A stretch of DNA of 64,000 nucleotides from Acidimicrobiia bacterium (GTDB lineage: Bacteria > Actinomycetota > Acidimicrobiia > Spongiisociales > UBA11373), in the NCBI GenBank assembly GCA_036478235.1, contig JAZGDZ010000040.1:12841-76840 (forward strand). The letters are read 5' to 3'. The notes below the pieces were generated by a model. It did no database searches. It had not been told where the DNA came from and was given only the letters and a program-made list of their open reading frames with translations. How positions within the stretch are numbered: the stretch's first letter is position 1; each line of letters begins with the position of its first letter. The translations under genes and the position numbers were made by a program. Positions 16,930-56,586 of the stretch are shown piece by piece.

Positions 16930-17700
16930 CTACGAGATGACCTTGCGAAATGCAGCGGTGGCTGCAGTGAAGGTGACGACGGCCAGCCCGGCGGTGACGC
17001 CTAGAGCCTTGCCGATGGCGCCCCAGTCCCACCCCACATTCACCAGTGCCCGAACCGCCTCGACGATGTAGGTGATCGGGTTGAACGTCGCCACCGTGTC
17101 CAGCCAGCCGGGGAGAAGGCTGCTGGGCATGAACGAGGTCGAGAGGAACAGCACGGGGAAGGTGATGAGAATGCCGATCATCATCGTGACCTCGCCGTTG
17201 CCAGTGAGAAGGGCAATCACGTTCGACAGCCCGGCCCAGGCGATTCCGAAGAACACCGCAAGCACGATCATCATGGCGACTCCGAGGACCCCGGTCTCGA
17301 ACCTGGCCCCCATTGCCAACGACACTCCGACGATGATCGTCGCTTGCAGGGCCATGCGGGTCGCATCGGCCATGACCTTCCCGAGGAGGATGCTCGAGCG
17401 GCGGATAGGAGCGATGAGGAACTTGTCGAGCAGTCCGTCCTCTATGTCCGTCACCATCCCGATCCCGGACTGGAAGGCCGAGTTGAGCGCGGTGAGAGCG
17501 ATGATGCTGGGCACGAGGAACTGCAGATACGAGTCGTAGGCAAATCCGGGCAGCTGGTCGAGCCGAGCGAATACCTGGCTGAACAGAAAGAGGAAGAGCA
17601 GCGGCTGGAACAGCGCGAAGAAGAGCAGGAGCCTCACCCGCACGATCTTCTTGAGCAGCCGACCCCACAGCACCGTGGACTCCTGCAGTGTCCTGATCAT
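16930..17700 (-). CDS. ABC-2 family transporter permease
   Basis: 256 aa with 6 TM segments, ABC-2 type. ATGA overlap with the upstream ATPase. Confidence 0.8.
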   Translation of the reverse strand: MIRTLQESTVLWGRLLKKIVRVRLLLFFALFQPLLFLFLFSQVFARLDQLPGFAYDSYLQFLVPSIIALTALNSAFQSGIGMVTDIEDGLLDKFLIAPIRRSSILLGKVMADATRMALQATIIVGVSLAMGARFETGVLGVAMMIVLAVFFGIAWAGLSNVIALLTGNGEVTMMIGILITFPVLFLSTSFMPSSLLPGWLDTVATFNPITYIVEAVRALVNVGWDWGAIGKALGVTAGLAVVTFTAATAAFRKVIS

Positions 17701-18693
17701 CGGCGGCTGAATCCCGGCATTCGGCTGCGCTGCTTGACCTCTTCCACCCGCATCTTCGCCCCCGTGTGGCGCAGGAACACGTCGTCGAGCGTCGGCTCGG
17801 AGACTTCCAGGCGGGCCACCGAGATCCCCTCACCGTCGAGGGCACGCACGACGTCGGCGAGACGCCCGGCCGCGTCGTGGGTGAACACCCGGACGGCGTG
17901 ATCGTAGGTCCGGGCGGTCCCGGCATCCGAAAAGCGGCTCAACAACCCCGAAATCCGCTCCACATCGCCCGGAGGGGTCTCGGCGCCGAGCGTCACGGTT
18001 ATGGCGTCGCCACCGAGGTCGTCTTTCAAGGCAGTCGGAGTCCCCTCGACTGCGATCTTGCCGTTGTCGATTATCGCCAGCCGGCGCGCCAGTGTGTCGG
18101 CCTCCTCCAGGTACTGGGTGGTGAGAAAGATCGTGACCCCGCGGTCGTTGAGCTCCCGTAGATAGGCCCAGAGCGCCCGGCGATTCTGTGGATCGAGCCC
18201 GATTGTCGGCTCGTCGAGGAACAGCACCCGCGGATCATGGGCCAGAGCCTGGCCGAGGTCGAGTCGACGGCGCATCCCCCCGCTGAAGGTCCCCGCGCGG
18301 CGATCTGCGGCGTCCGTGAGCTGGAGGATCTCGAGCAACTCATCACCTCGAGCCTTCGCCTGGGCCTTGGAGAGGCCGTGCAGCCGTCCCTGGAGAACCA
18401 GGTTCTCGCGGCCCGTCAGGTCGTCGTCGACACCGATGAACTGGGCCGCGTACCCGACCCGCTTGCGCACCTCCTCGGGGTCCTCGGCCACGTCGATGCC
18501 GTCCACCCGAGCCGTTCCCGACGTCGGGGTGAGGAGGGTCACGAGAATCCTGATCGTGGTCGTCTTTCCGGCCCCGTTGGGTCCGAGGAATCCGAAGATC
18601 TCCCCCTCGTCCACACCGAACGTGATGTCGTCGACCGCTCGGATATCCCCGGGATAAACCTTGACGAGGTCGATGACCTCGATGAGAGCCATG
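17697..18693 (-). CDS. ABC transporter ATP-binding protein (DrrA-like)
   Basis: Walker A GPNGAGKTTT, signature FSGGMRRRLDLG, Walker B VLFLDEPT. Start at ATG 18693 (MALIEVIDLVKVY). The longer ORF-track N-terminus is an artefact. Confidence 0.85.
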
Positions 18694-18915
18694 AGCAACG
18701 AGGTTAACCCGCGGCGAGGCGGGCGCCGACGCCGGCTTGATCGCGAGCAAGGCCACAACCGACCGCTGGGTCGAGCGGCGCCACTCCGCGGATTGGCGAG
18801 GATGGTCCCGAGGAGGCCGATCCACGGCAGGCCGTGACCGAGAGCGCGAGGATTGCGACGAACAGCCGCATCGGTTCGACGGTTCAGGTTTCCCGATGCA
18901 CACTTGACGCCCGCA

Positions 18916-20901
18916 ATGAGGAGAGCAGTGACGACCGACCCGACCCGGCCCCACCAGCAGGTCGCCGGACACGAGTGGTTCCGGGTCGATCCCGGTGACC
19001 TCGAGATCGGGGAGGTAACCACGGTCATAGCCGCCCAGCGAGCCGTCGCCATCACCCGGACCGAGGCCGGCTACGGAGCGCTCGACAACCGCTGCCCGCA
19101 CCAGGGCGGTCCGTTGGGTGACGGCCAGATCGAGGGGACCTGCCTGATCTGCCCCTGGCACGGCTACGAGTACGACCCGCTCACCGGCCGGCCCCCGGAC
19201 GACTACTCGGACGCCGCCACCCCCTATGACATCGAGGAGCGCGACGACGGGCTCTACGTGCGGCTCCCGGTGGTCGAGCGGATGCCGACCGTGATGGATC
19301 AGATGGTCGACACGATGACCGAATGGGGGGTGGACTCCGTGTTCGGCATGGTCGGGCACAGCAATCTCGGTCTCGCCGATGCATTGCGCTTGGCGCAGGA
19401 AGACGGCCGCCTCGAGTACTTCGGAATCCGCCACGAGGGGGCGGCAGCATTCGCAGCCAGCGCATACGGGAAACTCACCGGGAGACCGGCCGCCTGCTTC
19501 TCGATCGCCGGACCGGGTGCCACCAACCTCCTCACCGGCCTCTGGGACGCCAAGGTCGATCGCGCCCCCGTACTCGCCCTCACCGGCCAGGTGGACACCC
19601 AGGTGCTCGGCCCGGGTGCCTTCCAAGAGCTACCGCTCGCCGAGGCCTTTGCCGCCGTCGCCGAGTGGAGTCAGACGGTGCTGCGCCCCGAGAACGCCAC
19701 CGAGTTGATGGCGCTCGCCCTGAAGCACGCCATCGTCAATCGCGATGTCGCCCATCTGATCTTCCCCGATGAAGTGCAGAATCTGCCGGGACTAGCCGAT
19801 CCTCCGAGGCGACCGATGGAGGGCCGGCTGGCGACTACCCGGATCGCTCCCCCGCGCCATGAGCTCGAGGCCGCTGTCCGGCTGCTCGAAAGGGCAGAGC
19901 GCCCGGCAATCATCGCCGGCAACGGCGCACGCCAACACCGGGAGGCGGTCATCGCCCTGGCGGAGCACCTGGACGCCCCGATAATCACCACCTTCAAGGC
20001 CAAGGGCCTCGTGGCGGACAGCCACCCCTTGGCGGCGAGCGTCCTGGGACGCTCCGGGACCCCGGTCGGTTCCGCCGTGATGGGGCGAAGCGACGCATTG
20101 CTGGTGCTGGGGGCGTCGTTCTCCGATCACACCGGGATCTCTCGCAACAAGCCGACCATCCAGGTGGACTTCGATCGGATGACGCTCGGCAAGTTCCATC
20201 CGGTCGACATCCCCCTGTGGGGCGAGATCGAAAGAACCGTCGCCGAGCTGATGGCCGCCGTCCCCGGGGTCGACCGACCCGACGTCAGGAGAGATCTTGC
20301 GGCGCGGTGGGAGAGGTGGCGGAAAGAGAAGCGACGTCGTGCCGGTCTGACCGATGAGCGGGGCCGCCTCCATCCCGCAGCCGTGTTCGACGTGATGAGC
20401 GAGGTGGTACCGGGCGATGCAATCCTCCCGGTCGACGTCGGCAACAACACCTATGCCTTCGGCCACTACTTCGAGAGCGGGCCGGACCAGGACGTTCTCA
20501 TGTCGGGGTACCTCGGATCGATCGGGTTCGCCCTTCCGGCGGCGATCGGCGCCTGGGCCGCCACCCGAGGCAGCCGGCCGATCGTCTCGATCTCCGGCGA
20601 CGGCGGGTTGGGGCAGTATCTCGCCGAGATCACCACCCTCGTCAAGTACGACATGGACGTGACCCACGTCGTGCTCAACAACTCGGAGCTCGGCAAGATC
20701 AGCCGCGAGCAGGTGTCGGCGATCCGCCCGGTGTGGCAGACATCCCTCGTCAACCCCGACTTCGCCGCATTTGCACGGTCTGCCGGGGCGATGGGACATC
20801 GGGCCGAAACCGCCGAGAAATTTCGGTCGGCACTCGAGGAATCCCTGGCCCACCGGGGCCCGGCACTGGTCGAGGTGGTCACCTCGCCCATGGAGGTCTG
20901 A
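18916..20901 (+). CDS. Rieske [2Fe-2S] domain fused to a thiamine-diphosphate enzyme (pyruvate oxidase/acetolactate synthase-like)
   Basis: N-terminus has CPHQGGPLGDGQIEGTCLICPWHGYEY (CxH...CxxH Rieske). Then a TPP PYR domain (GIRHEGAAAFAASAYGKLTG...AGPGATNLLTGLWDAKVDRAPVLALTGQ), a middle domain, and a PP domain with GDGG...NNSELG. Confidence 0.8.
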   Translation: MRRAVTTDPTRPHQQVAGHEWFRVDPGDLEIGEVTTVIAAQRAVAITRTEAGYGALDNRCPHQGGPLGDGQIEGTCLICPWHGYEYDPLTGRPPDDYSDAATPYDIEERDDGLYVRLPVVERMPTVMDQMVDTMTEWGVDSVFGMVGHSNLGLADALRLAQEDGRLEYFGIRHEGAAAFAASAYGKLTGRPAACFSIAGPGATNLLTGLWDAKVDRAPVLALTGQVDTQVLGPGAFQELPLAEAFAAVAEWSQTVLRPENATELMALALKHAIVNRDVAHLIFPDEVQNLPGLADPPRRPMEGRLATTRIAPPRHELEAAVRLLERAERPAIIAGNGARQHREAVIALAEHLDAPIITTFKAKGLVADSHPLAASVLGRSGTPVGSAVMGRSDALLVLGASFSDHTGISRNKPTIQVDFDRMTLGKFHPVDIPLWGEIERTVAELMAAVPGVDRPDVRRDLAARWERWRKEKRRRAGLTDERGRLHPAAVFDVMSEVVPGDAILPVDVGNNTYAFGHYFESGPDQDVLMSGYLGSIGFALPAAIGAWAATRGSRPIVSISGDGGLGQYLAEITTLVKYDMDVTHVVLNNSELGKISREQVSAIRPVWQTSLVNPDFAAFARSAGAMGHRAETAEKFRSALEESLAHRGPALVEVVTSPMEV

Positions 20902-20905
20902 CCCT

Positions 20906-20960
20906 CAGTCTTCCTCTTCCTGCTCTTCTTTTTCTTCTTCTTCCTCCTTTCTTCTTGTCG
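20906..20960. repeat. 55-nt polypyrimidine (CTT/CTC-rich) tract, locally low GC
   Basis: cagtcttcctcttcctgctcttctttttcttcttcttcctcctttcttcttgtcg, with only 3 purines. Confidence 0.9.
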
Positions 20961-21481
20961 CTCAGGGACCCGAGAAGGACGCCCTGCTCGACGACGTCGA
21001 GCTGGTCGAGCGGGCCGTCGATCGCGTCATCTCCGATGCGCGTTCCCGCGGGTCCGACGCACCCCGCAGCGCCGATCTGAGGGCCATTGCCCGCGAGCGC
21101 GCCGCTTTCTGGAGCGCGCTCGCCGTCGATCAGCAGCGCAGGCTGAAGATCGACGTGCCGACCTCAGTGCTGAACGTCCACGCCACGAAGGACGACATCG
21201 GTCGCGTCCTCGACACCCTCATGGAGAACGTCTTCGCCCACACCGAGCCCGGTACCGAGATCTCGATCACCGTCACCTCGACTGGAGTGCTCCTCATCGA
21301 GGACGGCGGTGCCGGATTCGAGCCATCGGCGGCGGAGCGCGGTGCGAGCGGAGGCGGCTCCACCGGGCTCGGCCTCGACATCGTGCAGCGCATCACCGAT
21401 CGCAATGGAGGGACGTTGACGATCGATGCCTCGTCGCTGGGCGGCGCCCGGGTCAGCGTCGCCTTCCGGACCCGCCCGTAG
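20954..21481 (+). pseudogene. Histidine-kinase remnant: HATPase_c domain with the tail of the dimerisation region, no sensor, no H-box and no usable start
   Basis: ...LDTLMENVFAHTEPGTEISITV...IEDGGAGFEP...GGGSTGLGLDIVQRITDRNGGTLTIDAS are the N/G1/G2 boxes. The in-frame region upstream is the polypyrimidine tract and the end of the TPP gene. First in-frame ATG/GTG lie inside the ATPase domain. Confidence 0.6.
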
Positions 21482-21519
21482 CCCGAGTGCGGGGCCCGCA
21501 AGGGGCCCCCGCCCGATGA

Positions 21520-23223
21520 TCAGCCCTGCGGTCGCCTCTCGGCCCTAGCGACGCCACCCCGGACATGATCGCGCAGGACGTCGAGACCGACGGCCCCGAC
21601 CTCGAGCAGCCGCGAGTGGAAGGCCTTCTGGTCGTACCCGGCACCGAGCCGTGCCATCTCCTCGCTGCGCAGGTCGCGGATCGCCTGCTGCCCGACCTTG
21701 TAGGAGATCGCCTGCCCGGGCCAACCCAGGTAGCGATTCATCTCCGAGACGGACATGGCGTGATCCTGAGCGGCGTAGGCGTCGAGCATCTCGACTCCGC
21801 TCTCGAAGGTCCAGTGCTCGCCCGGGTGGAAGGGCTGCCCCTGAGGAATCTGCAGCTCGAGGTGGGAGCCGATGTCGATCACCACGCGGCACGCCCGCAG
21901 CATCTCCGATGCGAGCTTGCCCATCACGTAATCGGGCTTTTCGAGATAGCCGAGCTCTTCCATCAGGTCCTCGGCATACAGCGCCCAGCCCTCGCCCGAT
22001 CCCGAGTACCAGATCAAGAGCTTCTGCATACGAGAGACGCGGTCGCCGGCCGTCAGCTGCAGGCCGGTCTGCAGGTGGTGCCCGGGAAACCCCTCGTGGT
22101 ATGCGGTGCTGATCTCGTCGAACAGGGGAATCTGCTGCTGGTCCCCCTTCGACCAGTAGATGGTTCCGGGCCGCTTGAAGTCCTCGCTCGGCGAGTAGTA
22201 ATAGGCGCCGAGCGAGCCCCCCGGCGGCGTCATCTTGACGTCGATCGATTTGATCTCGTCCGGGACGTCGAAGTGCTCGCCGTCCAGCTCCCGCAACGCG
22301 ATCATCTGGCGTTGCAGCATGAGCTCGGAAAACTCGTCCTGGCTCTTCGCCGCCCTCCCCGGGTCCGTCAGCAGCAGCTCCAGGGCGGCCGCGAGACCGC
22401 CTCCGGGAAGGATCTCCTCGGCCAGATCGGCCATCCTCGCCCGGAGGCGCTCGACCTCTTCCCATCCCCACTCGTAGGTCGCGACGGGATCGATCTGCGC
22501 GCCGAGGAACCTGGCGGCCAGGTGGGCGTACCGTTCCGGCCCGACCGCGTCCCGCTCGGCGGCCGCCGGCAAGTACTCCTGCTCGAGATAATCGGCGATG
22601 CGGCCGAATCCGGAGCGGGCGAGTTCGACTCCGGCTGCCAGCCGCCGCAGCAGAGCGGCGTCTCCAAGGCCCGACTCGGTGAGCGAGGCGGGGTACGTGG
22701 TGAAGTGGGAGTCTGCTCCTGCGTGATTGCGCGCCTGTCTGACGACCTCCTCCACCTGACGCCGAGCCACGGTCGATCCGCGCCCCTTTCCCGCGTTCAT
22801 GCGAGAGACGTACTCCTCGGCAGCGGCCGGGAGCCGCTCCAGCCGCGAAGCAATGTTCTCCCAGCCCTCGGCGCTCGACTTGTCCATCTGATCGAACGTG
22901 TCGCGTAGATCCTGCGGCGTCGAGGCAATGCTGTTGAGGTCGAGATAGTGCTCACCGAGATCGTGATCGGCGAGATCGCGCTCCAACTCGGCGACCACGA
23001 CCTCCCCGGCAAGCTCGGCCCATTCGTCGTCCGCGTCGGGCAACGACCGCACCCGCCGAATCTGATCCCTCATCATCCCGGCGACGGCGTCGTATCCCTC
23101 GACCGAGAAGTCATTCCACAAGTGGTCGTATCCGGGAATGCCGAGATAGGTGGCGAGTATCGGGACGGCCGCCACGATCTCGTCGACGATGTCGCTGCTG
23201 AGGGAGTAGATGTCCTCGTTCAA
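21520..23223 (-). CDS. DUF885 family protein
   Basis: 567 aa with the DUF885 signature ...AYHEGFPGHHLQ.... Confidence 0.7.
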   Translation of the reverse strand: MNEDIYSLSSDIVDEIVAAVPILATYLGIPGYDHLWNDFSVEGYDAVAGMMRDQIRRVRSLPDADDEWAELAGEVVVAELERDLADHDLGEHYLDLNSIASTPQDLRDTFDQMDKSSAEGWENIASRLERLPAAAEEYVSRMNAGKGRGSTVARRQVEEVVRQARNHAGADSHFTTYPASLTESGLGDAALLRRLAAGVELARSGFGRIADYLEQEYLPAAAERDAVGPERYAHLAARFLGAQIDPVATYEWGWEEVERLRARMADLAEEILPGGGLAAALELLLTDPGRAAKSQDEFSELMLQRQMIALRELDGEHFDVPDEIKSIDVKMTPPGGSLGAYYYSPSEDFKRPGTIYWSKGDQQQIPLFDEISTAYHEGFPGHHLQTGLQLTAGDRVSRMQKLLIWYSGSGEGWALYAEDLMEELGYLEKPDYVMGKLASEMLRACRVVIDIGSHLELQIPQGQPFHPGEHWTFESGVEMLDAYAAQDHAMSVSEMNRYLGWPGQAISYKVGQQAIRDLRSEEMARLGAGYDQKAFHSRLLEVGAVGLDVLRDHVRGGVARAERRPQG

Positions 23224-23992: not shown

Positions 23993-24318
23993 CGACCCAC
24001 TCGACGGCGACGATATGGCTCCTCATCGGTGTGACCGCGGCGGGCACGTGGCTGATCCGCATCTCGTTCATCGCCCTGCTGGGGCGGGTATCGGTGTTCC
24101 CCGACCTGGCGATGCGGGTGCTGAGGATGATCCCTGCGGCGGTGCTCGCGGCACTCATCGGCCCGTCGCTTACGCAGGCCGAGGGTGCTTTCGACCTCGG
24201 AACCGAGCGATTCCTGGCCGGGCTGCTGGCGGGCCTGGTCGCATGGCGCACCAGGAACGTCCTGGCGACCATCGGGGTGGGAATGGGAGGGCTCTGGCTC
24301 TTGCAGGCGGTCGGCTAG
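23989..24318 (+). CDS. azlD: AzlD family branched-chain amino acid transport protein
   Basis: MTTHSTATIWLLIGVTAAGTWLIRISF... 109 aa, 3-4 TM. ATG 23989 overlaps the azlC TGA. Confidence 0.7.
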   Translation: MTTHSTATIWLLIGVTAAGTWLIRISFIALLGRVSVFPDLAMRVLRMIPAAVLAALIGPSLTQAEGAFDLGTERFLAGLLAGLVAWRTRNVLATIGVGMGGLWLLQAVG

Positions 24319-24430
24319 TCGATCCGAGAACGATGAGCAGCCGCTCTTGTTCCACGGTCCATACGCCCGAGATTGGGCCCCAAGCCCGGCACCGGCGTTA
24401 TCCTCGAAATCACCCTCCCCCGGAGTCCCG

Positions 24431-25579
24431 ATGCTGATCGCAGCACTGGATCCAGAGATCTACTTGAAGTCGCAGCGCACTCAGCGGCGAATGGTCGGCG
24501 CCCTCGTGTCGGCCATCACGGACTCGTTCGGAGGCGACGTTGAGCTCAGGCGTCTCGCCGGCCACCGGCTGGCGGTAGCCACCGAGCGCTCCGATGCAAT
24601 CGACCGGCTCGCTCACATCTTCGGTATCCGCGCCGTCGAGACCGTCGAACCGGTCCAGATCACCACGGTTCGGCAGCTTGCCGAGACCGTAGCCGAACGG
24701 TTCGCCGACCGGGTCGAGGGAAAGACCTTCGCCGTTCGCCCGACCCGCATGGGGTCGCACGACTGGTCGTCACAGGATCTGGCCGTGGCTGCCGGATCGC
24801 TGCTCGTCGAGGCGGGCGGGTCCGTCGACCTCAGCCGGCCCGAGTACACGGTTGTCGTCCGGGTGGTCGACGACGTGGCGTACCTGACCCTCGACGTTGC
24901 GCCCGGGGTCGGGGGGCTGCCCCCCGGGACCCAGGGCAAGGCCCTCATGCTCTTCTCCGGAGGCATCGACTCGCCGGTGGCCGCCTTCCTCATGGCGCGC
25001 CGCGGAGTCGCCCTCGACTACCTCCACTTCTCGCTCGGGTGCGGCCAGGCCGATCACGCCGCCGGTGTCGCTCACCTACTGACGGATCGCTACGGGGCGG
25101 GTACGGACCCGATGCTGCACGTCGTCGATCTGGAACCGGCAGTCGCCGAGATCCAGCACCGGGTCCCGGCGCGGGAACGGCAGATGGCTCTCAAGGGGGT
25201 CATGTACCGGGCATCCGCCGCCGTCGCCGGTGCCGACGGGACGGTCCGAGCACTGGTGAACGGCGAGTCGCTCGGACAGGTGTCGACACAGACGCTCGAC
25301 AACGTCGCCGCACTGGATCGACTGATCAGCATCCCGATGCTGCGCCCCCTCATCGGGCTCTCCAAGGAGACGATCATGACAAAAGCCCGCGAGATCGGGA
25401 CGTTCGAGGTCTCGTCCCGCACCAGGGAGCTGTGTGACATCGCCGGAGGCGCCAGGGTGTCTGTCTCGACGAGGCCGGCCAAGCTGGCAGTCATCACCGA
25501 AGGGCTCGGCGATCTCGTGGACCACGCAGTGATGACGACGAAGTCGATGCGCCTGACCGACTGGATGCCCGGAGGCTGA
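24431..25579 (+). CDS. thiI: tRNA 4-thiouridine synthase ThiI (THUMP + PP-loop ATPase)
   Basis: PP-loop LFSGGIDSPVAAFLM. The THUMP region is upstream. Start at ATG 24431 preceded by GGAG. Confidence 0.85.
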   Translation: MLIAALDPEIYLKSQRTQRRMVGALVSAITDSFGGDVELRRLAGHRLAVATERSDAIDRLAHIFGIRAVETVEPVQITTVRQLAETVAERFADRVEGKTFAVRPTRMGSHDWSSQDLAVAAGSLLVEAGGSVDLSRPEYTVVVRVVDDVAYLTLDVAPGVGGLPPGTQGKALMLFSGGIDSPVAAFLMARRGVALDYLHFSLGCGQADHAAGVAHLLTDRYGAGTDPMLHVVDLEPAVAEIQHRVPARERQMALKGVMYRASAAVAGADGTVRALVNGESLGQVSTQTLDNVAALDRLISIPMLRPLIGLSKETIMTKAREIGTFEVSSRTRELCDIAGGARVSVSTRPAKLAVITEGLGDLVDHAVMTTKSMRLTDWMPGG

Positions 25580-53782: not shown

Positions 53783-56586
53783 ATCCTCCCCCTCGCCGTC
53801 CGTCGCACTGCAACCCCGGCCCCGATGAGGAACAGCCACACAAGCGCACCGATCGCGGCCGCTCGTCTCGGACGGTAACTCGCAAAGGACACTTCGTCGC
53901 CCGCATCCGACACCCGGTTGCCCCAGTCGGCCTGCGACCACTCCCCGGGCCCCCACCTGAAGTCGGCGTTGGCCGCCACAAATACCTCCCCACCCGACCT
54001 TCCCGACGGCGCGGCGAACCCTGAGCCGGACGGCGACCACACGTCCCCGTCGGGCGAGATCGCAATCGCCGCTACGACCTCGTTCCTGAACACGGGGAAG
54101 TCGAGGGACCGAAGCGTGACGAGATCGAGCTGGGATTCGAACACCTGCTCGAGCGGGCTGGGCTCGGTGAATGCGATCCACCCGATCCCGAAGCCGGCCA
54201 GTTCCGCTCCGGCGCGGCGCGAGCGGCCGTCGACGATGTCCTCGAGGGCGCCGTGCAGCGCCTCATCGCCGATCCGCTCCTGGTTGAGGTAGGCCTCCCA
54301 AGAAGCGGGGAAAGGGGGGACGAACACCCGGTAACCGATGCCGTCGAGGTCGCGGGCCGTGCCGGGCAGACCCTCGGCAGGGCCGAACAAGAGCACTCGG
54401 CTCGGTGGCACCCCCTCGGGGGCGGCGAAATTAAATTTTCCGGTGAGCTCGTCCTCCGGTAGGCCGGCGCGGCCGGGGCCGGCCAGCGCCAGAGTCCCCA
54501 GGATCAGGACCACCGCTCCAGCTCCGGCCACCACTGCGGCCACCGGGCGCAGACCCCCGAAGTCGCGCCTTCGCACCGCTGCCTCGAACGCCGCTCCGGC
54601 CGCGACCGCCACCCCGAGCCCGTTGAGAACGAGCCCCGCCAGCAGCGTGTCGACCCCGGCACCGAGTTCCCCGCTCCGCGCCACCAGCGCGCCGCTCACC
54701 GCCATCACCGCTCCCCACGAGCCCACGGCCGAGATCGTCCGGTCACCGGCCAGGACCGCACCGAGCGCTGCCGCCGCCACCGCCGCCACCGCCGGCCAGG
54801 CCGGCTCCCAGAAGGCGGGGGAGCCGGATTGCAGGAGCCGAGCCGGGTCCACGTAGAGCACCCAGGGCAGCAAGAAAGGAAGGGCAAGAGCGGTCGCCAC
54901 CGCGGCCCTCCCGACGGCGGCGAATCGGTCGCCGACGCCGAGCATTGCCCACAGTGTTACTGCAACCAGCGGAACGACGAGCGCGACCGGCGCGAACACG
55001 GCGACCACGCCTACGGCAAACGTCACTCCGGCGAGGGCTGCAATCCGATCTATCAGCGATTTCCGCGGCGGGGCGAGGGCCGCACGCACCGCCCAGGGTG
55101 CCGCCGCCATAGCCGGGATGATCGTCCAATGGCTGGCTCCGGTGGCCGCGATGATCGCCGGCCCTGCCATGAGGATCGTGCCGGCGAAGTAGCCCGAAGC
55201 CGAGCCGATTCCCCACGTACGCAGCAACCGCCCGACGCCAAACGCTCCAAAGAGAAAGGACGAGACGGTGACGACTGCCACCGCCAGCCCTCCGCTCCCG
55301 AAGGCGACGAGCTGCACGAGCGCCACGGCCCCGATCGCCGGGCGCATCGCCTCAGGCGAGCCGAGCCCGGCCGGGTTCCATCCCCCCGCATACGCCTGCA
55401 GGGTGTCGCCGGCAGAATCGGGCGGGGGGAGCGAGAAGCCGACCAGCGGAAGATGATCGGTCCAGACCTCTCGCGTGGCGACCAGAGCAAACAGCACCAC
55501 GAGAAACCCGACGAAGAACGCCGGGTGGCGGATCCGCTGCTGTCCCGCCTCGACCGCTTCGGCGAACCCGGAGAGGATTCCCTCCGGGAACCGATCCCGC
55601 ACCCGCGTCAGGGTCTCGTCCCAGAGCGCCCGCAACCGGGCAGAACCCGCCACCTGGTATCGAAACAGCTCCTCGTCACCGCACTCCCGTCCCCGACGCG
55701 CCTGGATGCGTTGCCGGACCGCGCTCGGCAGGCGGGGAATGTTCCAGAGCCACGCCGCGAGGACTCCGGGAAGGAGGAAGCGACCGAACAACACTCCAAC
55801 GGTCCCCTCGACCAACCCGACCAGCAACGTGAGCGGAAGGGCCCACAACAGAGTGATTGGGCTGTACGCCTTGATCATCGCCCTGATTTCGCCGGCGCGC
55901 TCCCTCCAGTCGTGAGCTTGGTCCGAGCCGGCGAAGCCGACCACCGCGCCGGGAACGACGACCACCCGAGCGCCCCGCAGCCGGGCCCGCTGGCAGAAGT
56001 CGATCGCCGCCGCCGTCGGAGCCATCGACTGGTCGATCCCCCCAAGACCGTGGTAGAGATCCCGCCTGATGAGCACCGATATTCCCGATACCGCGGCGAC
56101 GTCTCGAATTACGTCGTATTGGGCCTGATCCACCTCGTCGGGCTGCAGCCCGCTGTAGGGGGCATCGAAGACGTCGGTGGCGTAACCCACCGCCACCAGC
56201 CGCTCCGGCTCGTCGATGTCGACGATCTTGGAACCCGCCACGGATGCATCCACCCGGATCGAGTCCTGGACGAGCACCCGCAGCGCCTGCGGATCGGGGA
56301 CGGCCTGCTGCCGCAGCGCCCAGACGAAGGTGAACTCCGGCCCGACCGACGAAACGGCCGCACGAAGGTTCGGCCGCCACATCGCTTCGAACTCCCCCGC
56401 CACATGGCGAACGTCATCGTCGCCGCCAACGACGAAGACACGGGCGGCCCCGTACACTTGCTCGCCGATCGAGGTCAGGCAGCGCCGCAGGGCAACGGGG
56501 TCGGATGCGGAAACGACCGCAGCAACCTGAGGCGCGACGTGACGTTCAGCCGGCACGGTGGAGTCGTTGGACATTCGTCCCAGCAT
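53779..56586 (-). CDS. Fusion of an N-terminal GT2 glycosyltransferase domain with a large C-terminal polytopic membrane domain (935 aa)
   Basis: GT2 region AAVVSASDPVALRRCLTSIGEQ...DQAQYDVIRDVAAVSGISVLIRR, followed by more than 12 TM helices. Confidence 0.7.
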   Translation of the reverse strand: MLGRMSNDSTVPAERHVAPQVAAVVSASDPVALRRCLTSIGEQVYGAARVFVVGGDDDVRHVAGEFEAMWRPNLRAAVSSVGPEFTFVWALRQQAVPDPQALRVLVQDSIRVDASVAGSKIVDIDEPERLVAVGYATDVFDAPYSGLQPDEVDQAQYDVIRDVAAVSGISVLIRRDLYHGLGGIDQSMAPTAAAIDFCQRARLRGARVVVVPGAVVGFAGSDQAHDWRERAGEIRAMIKAYSPITLLWALPLTLLVGLVEGTVGVLFGRFLLPGVLAAWLWNIPRLPSAVRQRIQARRGRECGDEELFRYQVAGSARLRALWDETLTRVRDRFPEGILSGFAEAVEAGQQRIRHPAFFVGFLVVLFALVATREVWTDHLPLVGFSLPPPDSAGDTLQAYAGGWNPAGLGSPEAMRPAIGAVALVQLVAFGSGGLAVAVVTVSSFLFGAFGVGRLLRTWGIGSASGYFAGTILMAGPAIIAATGASHWTIIPAMAAAPWAVRAALAPPRKSLIDRIAALAGVTFAVGVVAVFAPVALVVPLVAVTLWAMLGVGDRFAAVGRAAVATALALPFLLPWVLYVDPARLLQSGSPAFWEPAWPAVAAVAAAALGAVLAGDRTISAVGSWGAVMAVSGALVARSGELGAGVDTLLAGLVLNGLGVAVAAGAAFEAAVRRRDFGGLRPVAAVVAGAGAVVLILGTLALAGPGRAGLPEDELTGKFNFAAPEGVPPSRVLLFGPAEGLPGTARDLDGIGYRVFVPPFPASWEAYLNQERIGDEALHGALEDIVDGRSRRAGAELAGFGIGWIAFTEPSPLEQVFESQLDLVTLRSLDFPVFRNEVVAAIAISPDGDVWSPSGSGFAAPSGRSGGEVFVAANADFRWGPGEWSQADWGNRVSDAGDEVSFASYRPRRAAAIGALVWLFLIGAGVAVRRTARGRM

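Follow-up and report, generated by a model that had tools for sequence, protein, structure and literature searches.

A Rieske [2Fe-2S] domain fused to a pyruvate oxidase-like thiamine diphosphate enzyme: a widespread bacterial family and its possible route of electron transfer

We analysed a 64,000 nt stretch of DNA, hereafter the window, from an Acidimicrobiia bacterium (assembly GCA_036478235.1, contig JAZGDZ010000040.1, positions 12,841 to 76,840 of the forward strand), focusing on a gene that joins a Rieske [2Fe-2S] domain to an enzyme dependent on thiamine diphosphate (ThDP). The reading frame from 18853 to 20901 on the plus strand is uninterrupted, and encodes 682 amino acids (aa) counted from the TTG codon at 18853. 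The first-pass annotation of this DNA had described a Rieske domain fused N-terminally to a complete ThDP enzyme, and that description holds: a single ORF carries four domains, each scoring above its Pfam cut-off. The gene and its parts, in window positions, are as follows.

18928..20901 (stop codon included), + strand: Rieske–ThDP fusion gene, likely start GTG 18928, 657 aa
ATG 18916 (661 aa) and TTG 18853 (682 aa), + strand: alternative starts of the fusion gene
18946..19278, + strand: Rieske [2Fe-2S] ferredoxin-type domain, aa 11–121 by the beta-strands of the structural model, Pfam core 27–92
19093..19161, + strand: cluster-ligand boxes C60-P-H62 ... C79-P-W-H82, conserved in 79/79 family members
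19288..19632, + strand: PYR (TPP_enzyme_N) domain, aa 125–239, with Glu174 in RHEGAAAFAA and the FQE triad at 236–238
19864..20250, + strand: central (TPP_enzyme_M) domain, aa 317–445, with the motifs AGNGAR, TTFKAKG, GRSGT, GASFS and VDFD
20434..20877, + strand: PP (TPP_enzyme_C) domain, aa 507–654; the protein stops a few residues beyond
20596..20682, + strand: ThDP/Mg2+ motif GDG-X24-NN, aa 561–589
20689..20712, + strand: signature loop LGKISREQ, aa 592–599, with K594 opposite PoxB F465 and E598 opposite PoxB E469

The domain search proposed in the first-pass annotation placed Rieske PF00355 at aa 27–92, well above its profile threshold (46.3 bits against 20.3), and Rieske_4 also passed (32.7 against 28.4). 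TPP_enzyme_N (aa 125–239), TPP_enzyme_M (aa 317–445) and TPP_enzyme_C (aa 507–654) scored 112.9, 111.3 and 110.7 bits against cut-offs of 26.8, 30.4 and 21.9, respectively (E ~1e-32 for each). The order PYR–central–PP is complete, as in POX/ALS-like members of the ThDP-dependent decarboxylase superfamily. Two motifs had been reported with inexact spacing: CPHQGG-x16-CLICPWH is present but reads x13, the figure of 16 being right when residues are counted from the His, between H62 and C79, and GDGG-x24-NN is present but correctly takes the form GDG-X24-NN, a difference of one residue. GDG-X24-27-NN is the Mg2+/diphosphate motif of ThDP enzymes, and the catalytic Glu of the PYR domain activates ThDP; Glu174 aligns with the Glu of RHEE in PoxB, so that the catalytic Glu of the superfamily is in place. 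A break separating two genes was looked for, and the Rieske/PYR junction proved to be in frame, with neither stop nor frameshift. In the AlphaFold2 (AF2) model of the protein (predicted local distance difference test score, pLDDT, 83.7; predicted template modelling score, pTM, 0.82) the Rieske beta-sandwich (aa 11–121) enters the PYR domain after ~3–4 residues, and because so few residues join the two folds the attachment looks rigid rather than tethered.

The start of the gene had been placed at 18916, where there is indeed an ATG, the first of the frame, giving a product of 661 aa. However, the GTG 12 nt downstream, at 18928, is probably the true start, since it is preceded by a Shine–Dalgarno-like AGGAGA at 18919–18924, and since the closest homologues are 657 aa long and share the N-terminus MT(T)DPTRP (MTTDPTRP in the homologue P0001).

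The fusion is not peculiar to this genome. Our homologue list comprised the best 120 clusters from a collection of 5.8 billion proteins (68–97% identity, 629–675 aa), and all 120 have the Rieske plus TPP_N/M/C architecture. Their names are generic ('thiamine pyrophosphate-binding protein', 'Rieske 2Fe-2S domain-containing protein', 'pyruvate oxidase'), and the nearest named relative, in a cluster at 97% identity, comes from an Acidimicrobiia metagenome-assembled genome. A scan of one genome per GTDB species supplied the phylogenetic distribution that the first-pass annotation had asked for: the fusion is encoded by at least 592 species representatives, from about 10 phyla. Carriers belong to the Actinomycetota and Chloroflexota (Acidimicrobiia, Thermoleophilia and Caldilineaceae/Anaerolineae), Gemmatimonadota, Acidobacteriota, Bacteroidota (the Flavobacteriaceae Poritiphilus, Pseudotenacibaculum and Aquimarina), Cyanobacteria (Xenococcus PCC 7305, Leptothoe and Geitlerinema), Planctomycetota (Engelhardtia mirabilis) and Myxococcota, and also to the Gammaproteobacteria. 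We considered whether the fusion might be an artefact specific to this contig, produced by a frameshift, mis-assembly or read-through, an explanation that deserves almost no credence: the single-ORF architecture recurs in 120/120 listed clusters and in at least 592 species, and the in-frame junction contains no stop. The fusion architecture is real and evolutionarily fixed.

Residue conservation was counted over 79 full-length family members taken from genome loci. The four Rieske ligands, Glu174, F236/Q237, G561/D562/G564 of GDGG and ten central-domain motif residues are present in all 79 members, G563 and E238 in 78 and N589 in 77. The central domain is conserved as strongly as the catalytic domains. 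Across the same 79 proteins, the Rieske and ThDP parts show correlated degrees of identity to the window protein (r = 0.82), and so the two parts evolve together under joint purifying selection.

The closest relatives of the Rieske domain are RFESD, T4moC and the ferredoxins of the naphthalene (NDO), carbazole (CarAc) and biphenyl (BphF) dioxygenase systems. Its boxes CPHQGG and CPWHG are unaccompanied by a conserved second Cys pair, and hence by a disulfide of the bc1 type. With oxygenase-ferredoxin relatives, no disulfide Cys pair and no membrane anchor, the N-terminal domain belongs by its sequence features to the soluble Rieske-ferredoxin class, and not to the high-potential bc1/b6f type. 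Soluble Rieske ferredoxins of this class normally take electrons from flavins or flavoprotein reductases. Pfam revealed no mononuclear-Fe catalytic domain (2-His-1-carboxylate) of the kind found in Rieske oxygenase alpha subunits; it is the ThDP enzyme that follows the Rieske domain.

The best matches of the ThDP core are Escherichia coli PoxB (phmmer E 7e-65), the pyruvate oxidases (POX) of Lactobacillus plantarum and Aerococcus viridans (LpPOX and AvPOX), and Corynebacterium glutamicum PQO. Foldseek with the AF2 model returned the same ranking (E ~1e-40; TM-score 0.87 on the target, PoxB/PQO). The solved relatives align over ~545 columns at 26–28% identity, and because matches extend over only these columns no solved structure holds the fusion; neither sequence nor fold searches of the PDB found an entry spanning both the Rieske and the ThDP parts. 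No NCBIfam equivalog cut-off was reached, each score being about half its cut-off: 373 against 742 bits for PRK08611, 312 against 792 for PRK09124, 310 against 893 for PRK06546, 314 against 788 for PRK06457 and 287 against 638 for TIGR02720 (spxB). These scores place the protein in the POX/PoxB neighbourhood, and, since all are about half their cut-offs, apparently not as an orthologue of any named enzyme. The earlier remark that the architecture could not be tied to a characterised enzyme is therefore borne out by the unmet NCBIfam cut-offs, by the PDB, where no entry covers both parts, and by a literature search that was likewise negative.

With PoxB (PDB 3ey9/3eya) and PQO (PDB 9ev3–9ev6) the fusion protein shares the three-domain ThDP fold, the catalytic Glu, the FQE triad, GDG-X24-NN and the Glu of the loop following NN. 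The active-site residues common to the POX family, namely the FQE triad, R379 and E598, are all present, with R379 in the GRSGT loop aligned to the 'ANR' Arg of POX. The two ends of the protein differ. PoxB and PQO have no N-terminal Fe-S domain, whereas the fusion protein lacks their C-terminal lipid- and quinone-activation tail. In PoxB this amphipathic, lipid-binding tail couples the enzyme to membrane quinone. The fusion protein ends where its alignment with PoxB does, at PoxB residue 530 of 572, and a C-terminal extension is missing from all 79 family members; because of this, the PoxB/PQO-type tail, the usual quinone/membrane exit, is absent from the deduced fusion protein. LpPOX and AvPOX (PDB 1pow, 1v5e), which at ~26% identity are the best matches to the central domain, are phosphate-dependent, H2O2-forming enzymes. 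They use O2 as acceptor and have no Fe-S domain but carry a C-terminal extension of ~50 residues, which the fusion lacks. The loop after NN, K-I-S-R-E-Q in the fusion, presumably corresponds to F-I-K-D-E-Q in LpPOX.

In POX, PoxB and AHAS the central domain is the flavin adenine dinucleotide (FAD)-binding domain. When the central domain of the fusion protein was searched alone, FAD enzymes ranked first (AvPOX, LpPOX, AHAS I, CDH and PoxB), and OXC and HACL, which bind adenosine diphosphate (ADP), ranked below them. The central-domain motifs GxG, TT(F)KAKG, GASF and VDxD are invariant in the family. A paper on yeast AHAS (PMC5298238) supplied no usable residue-level list of FAD contacts. Judged from these rankings and motifs, retention of FAD in the central domain is favoured.

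An exhaustive phmmer search over 1.84 billion representative proteins placed the family in a wider context. Among representatives the fused family forms a few 50%-identity clusters, beyond which identity falls to 38–49%. Five proteins in this lower range (P0127, P0130, P0134, P0143 and P0150) carry a rubredoxin domain at the same N-terminal position. In a neighbour-joining tree of ThDP cores, which is rough and unbootstrapped, the Rieske fusions group in a single clade whose sister is the rubredoxin pair P0127/P0130, and a second rubredoxin group lies in a separate clade alongside unfused proteins. P0127 and P0130 also share the L-[GA]-K-I loop with the Rieske fusions. The rubredoxin carrier is smaller (~45 aa compared with ~110 aa for Rieske), and the gene neighbourhoods differ too, with P0127 adjoining a Peripla_BP_6 (periplasmic binding protein) gene in its contigs (L081–L083). 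Because different one-electron carriers interchange at one position, this pattern argues for an electron-transfer role of the N-terminal module, and is the strongest in-silico argument for that role. No characterised member of the rubredoxin–ThDP fusions was found in the literature, NCBIfam or the PDB.

Three further observations concern the same search. P0193 is another rubredoxin plus TPP_N/M/C fusion in the 38–49% identity range. P0122, an 873 aa protein from an ENA metagenome, combines two zf-CDGSH domains, Fer4_19 and Rieske with TPP_N/M/C, and so may hold up to four predicted Fe-S centres before the ThDP core. Finally, P0145, P0156, P0157, P0163, P0167, P0173 and others (~1000–1190 aa, 27–36% identity) consist of two tandem TPP_N/M/C modules.

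The first-pass annotation stated that the gene sits alone. This is true of the window and of its close Acidimicrobiia relatives, but not of the family. ORFs were clustered from 80 genome loci, and adjacency was counted in the 53 with at least 2.5 kb on both flanks. A protein of ~545 aa that combines Rieske with Glu_synthase, a flavin mononucleotide (FMN) domain, adjoins the fusion gene in 20/53 loci from at least 8 phyla, and is co-oriented with it in all but one locus; one copy lies at L071:5069-6685. Both its CxH..CxxH Rieske ligands and a C-x5-C-x4-C-P motif, which we take to be the [3Fe-4S] motif of glutamate synthase, are kept in 22/22 copies. A ~270 aa protein without family assignment adjoins the fusion gene in 18/53 loci. 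At least one of these two neighbours is present in 29/53 loci (~55%), and both in nine. A third type of protein, found in 5/80 loci, joins Ferric_reduct, a di-haem b membrane domain, to a C-terminal Rieske domain whose box, C.HQ.GPLGEG...CPWHGY.Y, is very similar to the one in the window gene. The last two kinds of neighbour were located as follows.

L071:10538-11566, L055:10904-12016 and L056:11085-12185: Ferric_reduct (MsrQ-like) plus Rieske
L039:3761-4819 and L067:4362-5405, - strand: Ferric_reduct (MsrQ-like) plus Rieske
L071:6687-7430, L075:6823-7569, L053:6778-7596, L027:9847-10728 and 19 other loci: neighbour of ~250–300 aa

The ~270 aa neighbour has an invariant H6, W-P-x-H-F-D and Y..Y, and in flavobacteria it sits between the Rieske–GltS-like gene and the fusion gene. 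It matched no Pfam or NCBIfam family, apart from a weak DUF5996 match in 5/18 members, and its best hit in a PDB profile search had an E-value of 0.59; its invariant, His-rich motif may mark a site for a metal or cofactor. The Ferric_reduct–Rieske gene is always followed by a gene for a ~264 aa protein with an N-terminal hydrophobic segment (for example L071:11577-12371), and the two may be a transmembrane electron-export pair. Flavobacterial clusters also hold a Crp/Fnr regulator, a YHS-domain protein, a DUF2721 membrane protein and an amino-acid permease. No oxygenase gene was a conserved neighbour of the fusion gene across the examined loci. The recurrence of Rieske-bearing neighbours suggests that electrons could pass from one Rieske centre to another, in a GltS-type FMN enzyme or a membrane cytochrome b.

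Taken together, we propose with moderate confidence, and largely by analogy, that the fusion protein is a 2-oxo-acid dehydrogenase, resembling POX and PQO, which passes its electrons to a partner by way of its own Rieske centre. ThDP activated by Glu174 would add to a small 2-oxo acid, most likely pyruvate, and decarboxylation would yield the hydroxyethyl-ThDP enamine, as in POX chemistry. A two-electron oxidation of the enamine would give acyl-ThDP, from which water or phosphate would release the acyl group. FAD in the central domain would take the electron pair and split it into single electrons, and these would exit via the N-terminal Rieske [2Fe-2S] domain, instead of passing to O2 as in POX or to membrane quinone as in PoxB/PQO. 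The Rieske centre would then hand them to a separate acceptor protein, in many lineages probably the adjacent Rieske plus GltS-type FMN protein, the haem-b (Ferric_reduct) plus Rieske protein, or both; in the organism of the window the acceptor would be encoded elsewhere. What the sequences establish is the domain architecture, the conservation of ligand, catalytic and motif residues, the place of the family among its relatives, the exchange of carriers in sister clades and the gene neighbourhoods; that pyruvate is the substrate, that FAD is bound, which way electrons flow and what accepts them are points that we infer. A different electron route had been suggested when the gene was first noted, and the Rieske domain as electron exit is the best-supported reading of the sequences, because rubredoxin takes its place in sister clades, the PoxB tail is missing, and Rieske-bearing redox proteins are neighbours; the direct donation to a quinone or an oxygenase that was given as an example is not what the neighbourhoods suggest. 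An exit through the Rieske domain is also the most plausible one since the protein has no exit apparatus of the O2 or quinone type and has a ferredoxin-class Rieske domain that, in the model, is rigidly attached.

Known systems offer partial parallels for this proposal. The reductase–ferredoxin pairs BphA4/BphA3, T4moF/T4moC and CarAd/CarAc contain Rieske ferredoxins of the same class as the N-terminal domain, and follow the same single-electron logic, from flavin to Rieske, that we propose here. The oxygenase pairs draw on NAD(P)H and have their ferredoxin as a separate protein, whereas the fusion would draw on a ThDP-bound 2-oxo-acid intermediate and has its ferredoxin tied covalently to the enzyme. 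Pyruvate:ferredoxin oxidoreductase (PFOR) and the related OFOR are analogous to the proposed function, coupling ThDP-dependent oxidative decarboxylation to the release of electrons through built-in Fe-S centres towards a one-electron acceptor. However, PFOR is unrelated to the fusion in fold and family, and uses [4Fe-4S] clusters and CoA, with no flavin; Pfam and NCBIfam scans of the fusion protein found no POR/PFOR domains and no [4Fe-4S] ferredoxin domains. Most PFORs are O2-sensitive, and the host lineages of the fusion family are, we presume, mainly aerobic.

Several observations weigh against the proposal. Identity to characterised pyruvate enzymes is just 26–28% and the NCBIfam equivalog scores are about half their cut-offs; hence a 2-oxo acid other than pyruvate is a possible substrate. 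No redox partner lies near the fusion gene in the window or in the closest Acidimicrobiia loci, and a tblastn search of the neighbour families against the window matched solely the fusion gene's own Rieske domain. At the position of Lys594 (Lys in 78/79 members of the fusion family), PoxB has F465, the counterpart of LpPOX F479 and presumably the ThDP–FAD electron relay, and the loop carrying Lys594 (aa 593–609) is disordered in the AF2 model, with pLDDT <50. The ADP-moiety motifs of the central domain are common to FAD enzymes and to the ADP-binding OXC/HACL, so sequence cannot decide FAD binding. The last two points would suit a PFOR-like route in which the protein binds no flavin, or ADP only, and the Rieske cluster directly oxidizes hydroxyethyl-ThDP in two one-electron steps through a ThDP radical: the relay Phe of POX/PoxB is replaced, conservation of the central-domain motifs does not separate FAD from ADP binding, and a carrier fused to a ThDP enzyme resembles the established ThDP-to-[4Fe-4S] logic of PFOR, where a ThDP radical is likewise formed. 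We nevertheless consider such a flavin-free route quite unlikely. The central domain ranks FAD enzymes above ADP-binding or cofactor-free ones and is conserved as strongly as the catalytic domains, the closest overall relatives are all flavoenzymes, and it is well established that Rieske ferredoxins of this class are normally reduced by flavins. As a separate matter, K594 proved unsuitable as a marker for every Rieske fusion: the more distant representatives have Met or Glu at position 594, in contrast to the Lys of 78/79 genome members.

The enzyme might alternatively be a non-oxidative carboligase, lyase or decarboxylase, similar to AHAS, GCL or CDH, with a vestigial or structural flavin and with the Rieske domain acting as a redox or O2/NO sensor, or as a regulatory or structural module. 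The close relatives AHAS, GCL and CDH retain FAD although they catalyse no net redox reaction, as documented for AHAS (PMC5298238). The absence of any match above a pyruvate oxidase or dehydrogenase equivalog cut-off fits this possibility, as does the Crp/Fnr-type regulator beside one cluster, but we regard it as unlikely: Rieske, rubredoxin and CDGSH/4Fe-4S modules are all fused at the same place in related clades, the top matches are oxidizing enzymes, and the repeated adjacency to Rieske redox proteins is hardly explained by sensing alone. Electrons could also flow in the reverse direction, from neighbouring Rieske proteins into the enzyme through its Rieske domain, where they would maintain a reduced flavin or power a reduction, for example reductive carboxylation or acyloin reduction. 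The direction of transfer is not readable from sequence, and the GltS-type neighbour could in principle act as an electron-donating dehydrogenase. Yet with potentials of about -150 mV, soluble Rieske ferredoxins of this kind would be far too positive for the synthesis of 2-oxo acids, which involves couples near -500 mV or lower; the POX/ALS family is not known to catalyse any such reaction, and reverse flow seems very unlikely.

In its broadest form, the proposal of a POX/PQO-like dehydrogenase with a Rieske exit would define a third, oxygen-compatible class of pyruvate (2-oxo-acid):acceptor oxidoreductase, which would combine ThDP, FAD and [2Fe-2S] in a single polypeptide and serve as the input of a Rieske-to-Rieske wire to a GltS-type FMN enzyme or a haem-b protein. 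We put this extension forward only tentatively, as a doubtful possibility. If it were true, a GltS-type partner could carry out reductive amination powered by a 2-oxo acid without NAD(P)H or ferredoxin, a transmembrane haem-b partner would export electrons from the fusion enzyme, and the rubredoxin-fused sister enzymes might be the counterpart in other organisms. Textbook ThDP-dependent pyruvate oxidation proceeds through the pyruvate dehydrogenase complex (lipoamide/NAD+), PFOR (Fe-S/ferredoxin) or POX/PoxB (FAD to O2 or quinone). A POX-type enzyme with a built-in Rieske or rubredoxin domain would be a hybrid of the PFOR and POX/PoxB solutions, and would allow cells to make reduced one-electron carriers from 2-oxo acids.

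Public databases already contain the architecture, under generic names, and it is built from components of familiar kinds. We searched the literature on Rieske or rubredoxin together with thiamine/ThDP enzymes, pyruvate oxidase, PQO or glutamate synthase and found no description of the fusion; nor did the literature, NCBIfam or the PDB yield a characterized member of the Rieske–ThDP family. A review of Fe-S flavoenzymes names no ThDP enzyme (PMC8097209). The fusion family is thus probably an undescribed way to draw electrons from 2-oxo-acid oxidation, and the labels 'thiamine pyrophosphate-binding protein' and 'pyruvate oxidase' probably misdescribe a widespread metabolic node. Many of the lineages that encode it, among them Acidimicrobiia, Gemmatimonadota, Chloroflexota, marine Flavobacteriaceae and cyanobacteria, abound in the sea, in sediments and soils and in sponges. 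Its conserved association with a Rieske plus GltS-type protein points to an undescribed electron-transfer pathway, and the fusion offers a compact, one-polypeptide system in which to study electron transfer from ThDP via flavin to an Fe-S cluster.

In the window, the genes on either side of the fusion gene are those named in the first-pass annotation. Upstream lies a divergent ABC-2 exporter operon, with the ATPase ATG at 18692 (- strand) and the permease at 16930–17700, separated from the fusion gene by one intergenic region.

18693..18927, no strand assigned: divergent intergenic region from the ABC ATPase start to the fusion gene, including AGGAGA at 18919–18924

A simple consensus scan of 18500–21600 found no sigma-70-like promoter and no intrinsic terminator, a result that is uninformative for a high-GC actinobacterium. 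Downstream, the ORF at 20771–21481 (+ strand) has HATPase_c (aa 141–233) as its sole domain, without HisKA, sensor or transmembrane region. It was called from a TTG, and its start overlaps the final ~130 nt of the fusion gene, features consistent with the decayed histidine-kinase fragment proposed earlier, or with a mis-called start. A DUF885 gene lies beyond it.

RNase PH and ThiI are encoded near the fusion gene in the window and in the closest Acidimicrobiia loci, an arrangement that we regard as housekeeping synteny. The thiI gene (THUMP plus ThiI domains) is at 24185–25579 (+ strand), 3.3 kb downstream of the fusion gene, and in five Acidimicrobiia loci (L011, L016, L018, L031 and L041) it is directly 3' of it. 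ThiI functions in sulfur transfer for thiamine and 4-thiouridine. A functional link between ThiI and the ThDP enzyme was considered and judged probably to be lineage synteny instead, since ThiI is absent from the loci of other phyla. Elsewhere in the window, positions 54001–56000 have a G+C content of 0.707 against a background of ~0.65–0.67, and an AT skew of 0.267, the maximum for the window.

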